From Pseudomonadota bacterium (lineage in GTDB: Bacteria > Pseudomonadota > Alphaproteobacteria > Rhodobacterales > Rhodobacteraceae), in NCBI GenBank assembly GCA_038525525.1, contig JBCBHO010000003.1, positions 572,165-636,164 of the forward strand: DNA of 64,000 nt. Direction: 5' to 3'. The notes under the pieces are model-generated. The model was not told the DNA's origin. It was given only the letters and a program-made list of their open reading frames with translations, and did no database searches. This document shows, one piece after another, positions 31,894 through 33,518 of the stretch (its first letter is position 1; each line of letters begins with the position of its first letter). The translations under genes were made by a program, and so were the position numbers.

Positions 31894-33518
31894 AGCTCTC
31901 CGTGTGGACCTATGAAGGACCGCCCCACGTGGGCGCCATGCGCGTGGCCACGGGCATGGAGGGGCTGCATTACGTGCTCCATGCCCCGCAGGGCGACACC
32001 TATGCGGACCTGCTCTTCACCATGATCGAGCGGCGCGATCACCGCCCGCCGGTAACCTACACCACCTTCCAGGCGCGCGATCTCGGCGCCGATACCGCCT
32101 ATCTCTTCAAGGATGCCTGCAAGGAGGCCGTGGAGCGCTTCCAGCCGGAGGCGATCATCGTGGGGGCCTCCTGCACGGCGGAGCTCATCCAGGACGATCC
32201 CGGAGGGCTGGCGGAGACGATGGATCTCGGCATCCCCGTCATCCCGCTCGAGTTGCCCTCCTATTCCCGCAAGGAGAATTTCGGGGCCGACGAGACCTTC
32301 TTCCAGATCGTGCGCCATCTTTGCGCGCCGCTGGAGCGGACGCAGGAGCTCTCCTGCAATCTGATCGGGCCCACGGGCCTCGGGTTCCGCCATCGCGATG
32401 ACGTGGAAGAGCTGACCCGCCTCCTCGAGGAGATGGGCGTGGCCATTAACGTCGTGGCCCCCCTCGGCGCCTCGCCCACCGATCTGACCTGGCTTGGCGC
32501 AGCGCATTTCAACGTGCTGATGTATCCTGAAACCGGCGAGGCCGCCTGCCGCTGGATGGAGCGGGATCTCGGGCTTCCCTATACCAAGACAGTTCCCATC
32601 GGTGTCGGCGCCACGCGAGACTTCATCGAGGAAGTGCTGGCCATCGGCGGCGCGGCAGAGGCGCGCGCCGGGCTGAAGCCCGGCCTCCGGCGTCCGAGAG
32701 AGGATCGGCTGCGGCTGCCCTGGTGGTCGCGCAGCGTGGATTCCAATTACCTCACCGGCAAGCGCGTTTTCCTATTCGGCGACGGCACCCATGTCCGCGC
32801 GGCGGCGCGCGTAGCGTCCGAGGAGATGGGCTTCGAGGTCGTCGGGCTTGGCTGCTACAACCGCGAGATGGCCCGCGACCTTCGCGCGCTGGCAGAGAAG
32901 ATGGGTGTCCCCTGCTACATCACCGAGGATTACCTCGAAGTGGAGCAGGCCGTCATCGACCTCGCCCCCGAGATGATCCTCGGCACGCAGATGGAGCGCC
33001 ATATCGGCAAGCGGCTGGGGATCCCCTGCGCGGTGATCTCGGCGCCCGTCCACGTGCAGGACTTCCCCGCGCGTTACTCGCCGATGATGGGCTTCGAGGG
33101 CGCCAACGTGATCTTCGACACCTGGGTGCATCCCCTCGTGATGGGCCTCGAGGAGCACCTCCTCCACATGTTCCGCGAGGATTTCGAATTTCACGACGGC
33201 AATGGCGCGAGCCATCATGGCGGGAAGATTGATCTGAGGTGGGTGGGGGCTGAGGCGCATCCCGCCCCGCCCTCCGAGCCGGGGCCTCGCCCCTCGGAGC
33301 ATGAGGTCCCGGGTCAAGCCCGGGACGTGGAGCTCCCCGAGGTTCAGGCAGACGGGTCCGTCATTTGGCTGCCCGCCGCCGAGGCGGAGCTGAAGAAGAT
33401 CCCGTTCTTCGTGCGCGGCAAAGCCAAGCGCAACACGGAGGCTTTCGCGGCCGAGCGTGGCGTGAGCGAGATCAGCGTGGAGACCCTCTACGAGGCGAAG
33501 GCCCACTATGCGCGATAG
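31890..33518 (+). CDS. bchB: light-independent protochlorophyllide reductase subunit B (carries an in-frame repeat-element insert)
   Basis: [23 protein letters not shown]... It has an ATGA overlap with bchN. The start lies inside track ORF 31755..33518. Confidence 0.95.
33235..33350 (-). repeat. stem-loop repeat element, copy C, inside the bchB reading frame
   Basis: The reverse complement contains GTCCCGGGCTTGACCCGGGACCTC, identical to copy A. There is a second hairpin, CTCCGAG..CTCGGAG, at 33272-33299. The element is co-linear with copy E (CCGAGCCGGGGCCTC...GAGGTCCCGG-TCArG-CCGGGACGTGG). Confidence 0.75.

Follow-up and report, generated by a model that had tools for sequence, protein, structure and literature searches.

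A probable REP-type palindromic repeat read in frame within the interdomain linker of BchB in a member of the Rhodobacteraceae

Does bchB, the gene for the B subunit of the dark-operative protochlorophyllide reductase (DPOR), contain repetitive DNA that is read as protein, and if it does, what is this DNA and how did it come to be there? The question is raised by a stretch of 64,000 nt from a Rhodobacteraceae genome (assembly GCA_038525525.1, contig JBCBHO010000003.1, positions 572,165 to 636,164), referred to here as the window. A reading of the window made from the sequence alone had proposed that a repeat element, with further copies between genes, lies in frame within bchB. It does, and the segment is very probably a copy of a short, non-autonomous REP-type palindromic repeat, here called F1, that is carried in an interdomain linker as a near-neutral passenger.

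The identity of the gene is secure. From open reading frame analysis, Pfam, and PDB matches, bchB is at 31890 to 33518 on the forward strand, with bchN on one side and bchH on the other, and encodes 542 amino acids in an intact frame. The protein has a nitrogenase-type core (Oxidored_nitro, PF00148, residues 13 to 417, E 1.6e-83) and a C-terminal PCP_red domain (PF08369, residues 494 to 538, E 2.7e-19), with the Pfam residue numbers counted from one residue upstream of M1. It matches the solved structures of BchB from R. sphaeroides (8vqi_B, E 8e-256) and 3aek_B (E 1e-235). A nitrogenase component-1-like core, a C-terminal PCP_red domain and similarity to solved BchB structures together identify it as DPOR subunit B. 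An exact-sequence look-up found no identical record for the protein.

The F1 unit is a 27-nt palindrome with the consensus CACGTCCCGGRCYTGAYCCGGGACCTC. In bchB it occurs as a doublet of two hairpins, copy C, at 33261 to 33329 on the forward strand. Calculated from the coordinates, these 69 nt are codons 458 to 480 and are in frame, encoding 23 hydrophilic, Pro/Gly-rich residues between the two Pfam domains; the peptide quoted in the sequence-only reading is the true translation. The left, C-type unit (CCCGCCCCGCCCTCCGAGCCGGGGCCTC, 33261 to 33288) has the stem GCCCCG/CGGGGC, with a seventh pair that is broken in the window, and its block CGCCCCGCCCTCCGAGCCGGGGCCTC (33263 to 33288) is identical at 24 of 26 positions to 38933 to 38958 in copy E, an intergenic doublet. 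There follows a 14-nt spacer (GCCCCTCGGAGCAT, 33289 to 33302) that has GCATGAG in common with another intergenic doublet, copy D. The right, T-type unit (GAGGTCCCGGGTCAAGCCCGGGACGTG, 33303 to 33329) is a stem of 8 bp around a loop of 5 nt, with the CGTC tag on the opposite strand. Its core, GAGGTCCCGGGTCAAGCCCGGGACG (33303 to 33327), matches the reverse complement of 16790 to 16814, in the intergenic copy A, at 25 of 25 positions. The proposed reverse orientation to copy A is therefore right, and the exact core shared with it is real, being 25 nt long rather than the 24 nt first given. Read from the sequence, the T-type unit consists of the stem GTCCCGGG/CCCGGGAC, the loop CTTGA and the tail CTC. 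The C-type units with the CCCCCGAG loop deviate from this, having a 7-bp stem and an 8-nt loop. The RNA fold of the bchB copy is two hairpins at -50.1 kcal/mol (z -2.45).

The presence of repetitive DNA in frame within this intact and conserved gene rests on significant similarity. A 30-mer pattern allowing up to 3 mismatches has two matches in the window and none in each of 100 shuffles. With a unit profile built from metagenome copies only, an nhmmer search within the window finds 33303 to 33329 at E 6.6e-8.

Comparison with relatives places the element in a single recent lineage of the window's close kin. The closest large-database protein to the window BchB is P0001, which is 97% identical, also 542 amino acids long, and comes from GCA_038533575.1 (locus L001). 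Over 21.6 kb the identity between the window and L001 is 95.1%, and L001 has F1 in bchB as well, with 4 substitutions. Its right unit has the same sequence as that of the window, and its left unit is identical at 25 of 26 positions (E 1.5e-7) to L001's own intergenic copy. The two bchB genes differ by 64 nt and 17 amino acids. Three of the four nucleotide differences inside F1 are non-synonymous, and 9 of the 17 amino acid differences are in the linker or in or just after a separate 30-nt insert (32664 to 32693), which fits relaxed constraint at these places.

The next relatives, proteins P0002 to P0005 and loci L002 to L004, have BchB of 523 to 524 amino acids, and the DNA of their bchB region is 86 to 95% identical to that of the window. 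In L002 to L004 there is no F1 in bchB. The flanks KIDLR..EA and LPEVQxDGS are kept and the middle differs, with 73 nt between the conserved flanks in the window against 46 nt in L002. The sole piece of bchB that cannot be aligned by BLAST is 33241 to 33331 of the window against 11322 to 11385 of L002. The ortholog alignment thus bears out a lineage-specific difference, in the window and L001 and absent from L002 to L004. It also narrows the feature. A repeat at the site had been correctly recognised, but its extent of 33235 to 33350 takes in flanking sequence (KIDLR..GAEA and ELPEVQxDGS) that is conserved in relatives without the repeat. In place of the 35 to 40 added residues originally estimated, 23 are encoded by the repeat and the net linker gain over L002 to L004 is 27 nt, or 9 amino acids; a further 10 amino acids of length difference come from the 30-nt insert. 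L002 carries F1 in its bchM/lhaA gap, so a bchB without F1 coexists with the family in that genome. On these alignments, the arrival of F1 in bchB would fall between lineages that are approximately 95% and 90% identical. A separate observation concerns the first 1.35 kb of bchB, where L002 (10000 to 11321) and the window (31889 to 33240) are 85.7% identical and the flanking genes 90 to 95%; this hints at recombination or faster evolution.

The site that F1 occupies was not ancestral coding sequence in the sense first supposed. An older repeat-derived sequence has been displaced and can still be seen in the sister lineages. The middle of the linker in L002, L003, and L004 is a second repeat, F2, with the consensus GGGGGGCCAGCCCCCCAGACCCCCCG..GTATTT..GGCAAGATGAAGG. 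By count from the alignment, 27 of 29 nt of the L002 linker repeat are shared with the F2 copy in the bchN/bchB gap of the same genome. The bchH/bchL gap shows the same exchange between conserved flanks, with an F1 doublet in the window and L001 (window 37032 to 37103) and F2 in L002 (15099 to 15164) and L004 (15094 to 15158). An F2 profile search finds no copy in the window or L001. The presence of F2 in the linker of the sister lineages, the same swap at bchH/bchL, and the absence of F2 from the window and L001 indicate that F1 has replaced F2 in this lineage at at least two sites, as judged from the alignments. Comparison with the L002 linker raises the possibility that pieces of the displaced F2 (CCCTC..GGAGCA) survive in the spacer of the bchB doublet.

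F2 is also present in the bchN/bchB gap of many Rhodobacterales, including L002 (9933 to 9991), L013 (9944 to 9973), L020 (9912 to 9938), L031 (9934 to 9988), and L073 (678 to 706). The gap copy is inverted relative to the linker copy 1.4 kb downstream and the two are nearly identical within a genome; in several genomes the linker F2 is most similar to the genome's own gap copy. Such near-identity points to gene conversion, or to a recent insertion drawn from the repeats of the same genome.

Repeat finding and profile searches identified seven strong F1 units at five sites in the window. Apart from bchB, these are copy A, a doublet in the bchY/bchZ gap (16789 to 16859); copy B, a lone unit on the forward strand 7 nt past the pufQ stop codon (18628 to 18654); copy D, the doublet in the bchH/bchL gap; and copy E, a forward-strand doublet in the bchM/lhaA gap (38931 to 39001). 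Copy E has the orientation and unit order of the bchB copy and is also found in L001 and L002. At four of the five sites F1 is therefore a doublet of two inverted units of approximately 27 nt, with the CGTC ends outward and spacers of 14 to 24 nt. CGTC is present in 6 of 9 units, while C-type units carry CGCC. The GTC of the tag is complementary to GAC at the opposite end of the unit, hence the tag is not clearly unpaired. All of the elements fold stably (-48 to -57 kcal/mol, z -2.5 to -4.5). Copies A and D fold arm-to-arm as one long hairpin, that of copy A having -56.1 kcal/mol and z -4.5; in the bchB copy and in copy E each unit forms a hairpin of its own. Copy D also has a bearing on annotation. 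The bchL frame has its first ATG (37075) inside this copy, and the start that the window has in common with L002 and L004 is the later ATG, at 37123, so that gene-calling programs could make BchL begin within the repeat (window 37075 to 37125).

Outside of the window, F1 is found in unrelated surroundings. A BLAST search of copy E against plasmids gave one match; the Marinovum algicola plasmid pMaD9 has an F1 doublet, with a spacer of 13 nt, in an 81-nt gap between unrelated co-directional genes. The exact 27-mer is present in 30 metagenome contigs, in about half of them as doublets with a C-type left and a T-type right unit. From this distribution, F1 is a general repeat, independent of bchB and of the photosynthesis cluster, that is found through Rhodobacterales genomes chiefly in the gaps between co-directional genes.

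Nor is bchB the only gene in which F1 is read in frame. In the gene for the NAD(P)HX repair enzyme Nnr of L096 (4445 to 4549), an in-frame doublet encodes approximately 24 amino acids between a helix and the VLDADAL strand. The Nnr ortholog in L112 is 60% identical to that of L096 and has a doublet at the same loop (reverse strand, approximately 1850 to 1975), although there it is flipped and encodes a different peptide. Both proteins have YjeF_N and Carb_kinase domains. Two further genes have a single unit in frame that reads EVPDQVRDV. In L110 (3811 to 3837) it is in ftsY, in the part for the acidic N-terminal region with its EP repeats, and in L104 (2434 to 2460) it is in the gene of a glycerophosphodiester phosphodiesterase-like protein, inside the segment matched by Pfam GDPD. 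In the nnr, ftsY, and GDPD genes, Pfam domains flank or span the element. The frame E-V/A-P-G/D-Q-x-R/W/Q-D is used in 6 of 7 in-frame cases, with three bchB lineages counted; the flipped doublet in nnr of L112 means that there is no universal reading frame, and this idea was rejected.

The linker itself is permissive and prone to repeats. As the sequence-only reading had it, the element is ahead of the C-terminal region, in the variable linker that precedes PCP_red. Across approximately 80 Rhodobacterales bchB loci this linker, taken from SHHGG to W-L..., ranges from 17 to 62 amino acids and has no conserved sequence. When the linkers were compared with everything in the pooled loci except bchB, significant matches, to repeat DNA, were obtained for 20 of 66; among control segments of equal length taken from bchB the figure was 9 of 330. 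The matches define three families. F1, which also has intergenic copies, is in bchB of the window and L001, as a full doublet in the same frame in L006, and as single decayed units in L025 and L032. These F1-bearing lineages are not adjacent on a neighbour-joining tree of the BchB core, a tree without support values. F2 is in the linkers of many lineages, with peptides such as GGPAPQTPRxISxKM, as well as in the bchN/bchB and bchH/bchL gaps. F3 is in Rhodobacter-type linkers, for example those of L042 and L077, as the palindrome CGGCCGAGGGGGGCTCGATGCCCCCCGAGGCCG with the peptide EGGSMPPEA. It is found reversed within the 3' end of bchN in L014 (1194 to 1228), L015 (9931 to 9961), and L019 (2821 to 2852); intergenic F3 copies were considered and rejected, as the non-bchB matches lie inside the bchN 3' end and not in the gap. 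At the F3 position, BchB of R. sphaeroides (PDB 8VQI) reads AEGGSIPPEA.

A poor AlphaFold2 model from a 17-sequence alignment (mean pLDDT 58) was dropped as evidence of disorder because residues 382 to 440 score as low as the linker, at approximately 30. In BchB crystals the linker may be disordered. The 2025 cryo-EM paper on BchB is silent on whether the linker is resolved.

How would F1 have come to be in bchB and stayed there? By the comparison with relatives, a doublet came to occupy the linker in a recent ancestor shared by the window organism and GCA_038533575.1, displacing most of F2. Since the length of 69 nt is divisible by three, the frame has no stop codon, and the linker tolerates nearly any length or sequence, the element would be translated as 23 residues and persist in this probably flexible tether as a passenger that is presumed to be near-neutral. 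Its movement would most likely have been by copying, through a transposase or recombination, with a preference for places that already held a hairpin or repeat.

Several points weigh against this account. All seven strong units in the window are within the photosynthesis cluster (16.7 to 39.0 kb), at the gaps of the bchXYZ-puf and bchFNBHLM-lhaA operons and in the interior of bchB, and there are none in the remaining 42 kb or so; such confinement is unexpected for a selfish repeat scattered at random. The copies were counted in the window and in 20-kb flanks of relatives. No transposase or other mobilising function turned up in the 64 kb or the 20-kb flanks of the relatives, where no search aimed at one was made, and for CGTC-type REPs no transposase of their own is known (PMC3733652). 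The insertion is also not clean. Its boundaries with the displaced F2 are ambiguous, and two single-unit insertions that flank old sequence may be the alternative to the arrival of one doublet.

The confinement to the cluster speaks for an alternative in which selection keeps the hairpins as RNA elements of the transcript bchFNBHLM-lhaA-puhA, serving as decay barriers or as processing or translational pause sites, with the linker as the only place available for one within a tightly packed operon. The occurrence of three unrelated hairpin families in one linker across the Rhodobacterales, at the excess over control segments given above, is in its favour, as are the stable structures of the elements and the view that REPs between co-directional genes act as RNA elements (PMC3733652). 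Yet F1 is also present on the Marinovum plasmid and in nnr, ftsY, and GDPD genes, and many BchB linkers are without any repeat. By inspection, the older in-frame copies in bchB of L006 and L032 have decayed stems with uncompensated mismatches, and in the left stem of the window C faces C at a position that is paired in L001. Together with the amino acid changes caused by three of the four substitutions between the window and L001 within the element, these observations give no sign of selection on RNA structure. A terminator and promoter scan of 32500 to 33700 found nothing, including no terminator-like T-run, and Rfam has no match in the whole window at gathering thresholds nor in 33100 to 39100 at E of 1 or less. 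Selected RNA elements are an improbable explanation for the bchB copy.

Even less probable is selection on the peptide, whether because it lengthens the tether between the BchB core and the C-terminal domain, changes the charge of this tether, or adds a new motif for interaction there. The shared frame of 6 of the 7 in-frame cases would suggest selection on the encoded sequence, and the peptide persists in L006, L025, and L032 despite the decay of the stem. The frame bias is, however, equally explained by the purging of less tolerable frames, and one nnr copy uses another frame and orientation. The range of linker lengths without a conserved motif, the function of the closest relatives with a different sequence that is 9 amino acids shorter, and the non-synonymous majority of the differences between the window and L001 within the element likewise argue against a beneficial peptide. 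Chance or convergence in DNA of 67% G+C might also be considered, given that short GC-rich palindromes arise easily, the 30-nt insert without relatives being an example, and so might an assembly artefact that has pasted a repeat into bchB. Both are effectively refuted. Against them stand the absence of matches in 100 shuffles and the exact 25-nt match joined by a second block of 24/26 in the right order and spacing. The insert is found, 4 substitutions apart, in L001, which is an independent assembly; the frame is intact, and 17 amino acid changes among 64 nucleotide changes, 9 of them in or beside inserts, fit purifying selection.

Taking the segment as a REP-type repeat, its nearest described counterparts are the CGTC-tagged REPs of Di Nocera, De Gregorio & Rocco (2013), which are mostly from alpha-proteobacteria and have 8 to 9-bp stems, 4 to 5-nt loops, and 3-nt tails (PMC3733652). 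These are mainly 'HH' dimers with the tags outside and spacers of usually 20 to 100 bp, and are located mostly after genes, between co-directional genes. Occasional intragenic copies are in frame, more than half of these being dimers that encode 20 to 30 amino acids, suggested to be in flexible linkers (PMC3733652). The same paper assigns the Rickettsia palindromic elements (RPE) RPE-4 and RPE-6 to the CGTC REPs, and its text makes no mention of Rhodobacter (PMC3733652). F1 resembles this group in its short palindromic unit (27 nt, where the criterion is 20 to 40 bp in many copies) with a CGTC end; in the 8-bp stem, 5-nt loop, and 3-nt tail of its T-type unit; in being dimeric with tags outside at four of the five window sites (A, C, D, and E) and in roughly half of the copies from metagenomes; and in its sites between co-directional genes, with some in-frame dimers. 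It differs in that the GTC of its tag can pair with GAC, so that the tag is not clearly unpaired as it is in CGTC REPs; in a tail of CTC rather than CCA; in the CGCC of its left-type units; and in some of its spacers being shorter, at 14 to 24 nt in the window and 13 nt in Marinovum. Because of the probably paired tag and the CTC tail, and since the comparison is with described features rather than by a match to the four published consensus sequences, F1 is called REP-type and CGTC-like and no family membership is claimed.

The analogy that had been drawn with the RPE is apt. As reportedly described by Ogata et al. in 2000, these elements are inserted in frame in the genes of functional proteins, where the peptides are tolerated, and have intergenic copies too. 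F1 is like them, by behaviour only, in being a palindromic in-frame insert in the gene of a functional protein with a tolerated peptide and intergenic copies of the same family. The host, however, is free-living and phototrophic rather than obligately intracellular, the element of 69 nt is shorter than RPE-1, and the site is a hypervariable interdomain linker that is also used by other repeat families.

Two further groups share some of these properties. REPINs (Bertels & Rainey 2011, PMC3116915) are inverted REP doublets able to form a single long hairpin; of the F1 doublets, copies A and D fold in this way, and the bchB copy and copy E do not. REPINs are built from GTAG-type REPs, are almost strictly extragenic, and are mobilised by RAYT transposases (PMC3116915). 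A RAYT is an IS200/IS605-like tyrosine transposase whose single-copy gene has the REPs at its flanks. In F1 doublets the spacer varies and the two units differ, one being C-type and the other T-type. Prokaryotic MITEs inserted in frame, the subject of a review (PMC10969869), are likewise small non-autonomous repeats that can extend or interrupt open reading frames. For F1, no IS terminal inverted repeats and no target-site duplication were identified here.

An in-frame repeat in an essential photosynthetic enzyme had been called notable. It is less so than supposed, as intragenic REP dimers of 20 to 30 amino acids have already been described (PMC3733652) and repeat-derived linkers are common in the Rhodobacterales. 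The added interest is that one interdomain linker has been colonised repeatedly by three repeat families and that sites of one family have been taken over by another, one of them within an open reading frame. The locus is a natural example of a selfish palindromic repeat becoming protein sequence, with the prior state visible in sister genomes and in an enzyme with solved structures. Most of the BchB linker appears to be filler that derives from repeats, and this apparently holds for the AEGGSIPPEA of the R. sphaeroides cryo-EM protein too; differences in the linker between species should therefore not be over-interpreted.

Family replacement at two sites and the reuse of the same protein loops suggest that the repeats target existing repeats. 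A larger claim, that the BchB linker and likewise one Nnr loop are recurrent landing pads at which palindromic families insert into and replace one another, is tentative and somewhat doubtful, a hairpin selected at this place in the bch mRNA being the alternative. In its support are the swap from F2 to F1 at both the linker and the bchH/bchL gap, and the F1 doublets in opposite orientation at one Nnr site in orthologs that are 60% identical. If it were true, REP-type repeats would home to existing hairpin repeats even within open reading frames, and the protein linkers of the Rhodobacterales would be continually rewritten by repeat turnover.

The 30-nt insert noted above is a minor feature of the same gene. 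At 32664 to 32693 on the forward strand, it is in frame, adds 10 residues (codons 259 to 268), and has the hairpin GCCGGGC-TGAA-GCCCGGC. Its assignment to F1 or any other repeat was rejected, as the resemblance to F1 is loose, there is no nhmmer match, and there is no second copy in the window or in 113 loci. It is limited to the window and L001, corresponding to a clean 30-nt gap in L002, L003, and L004 and to a 10 amino acid gap in all other orthologs, including that of R. sphaeroides.

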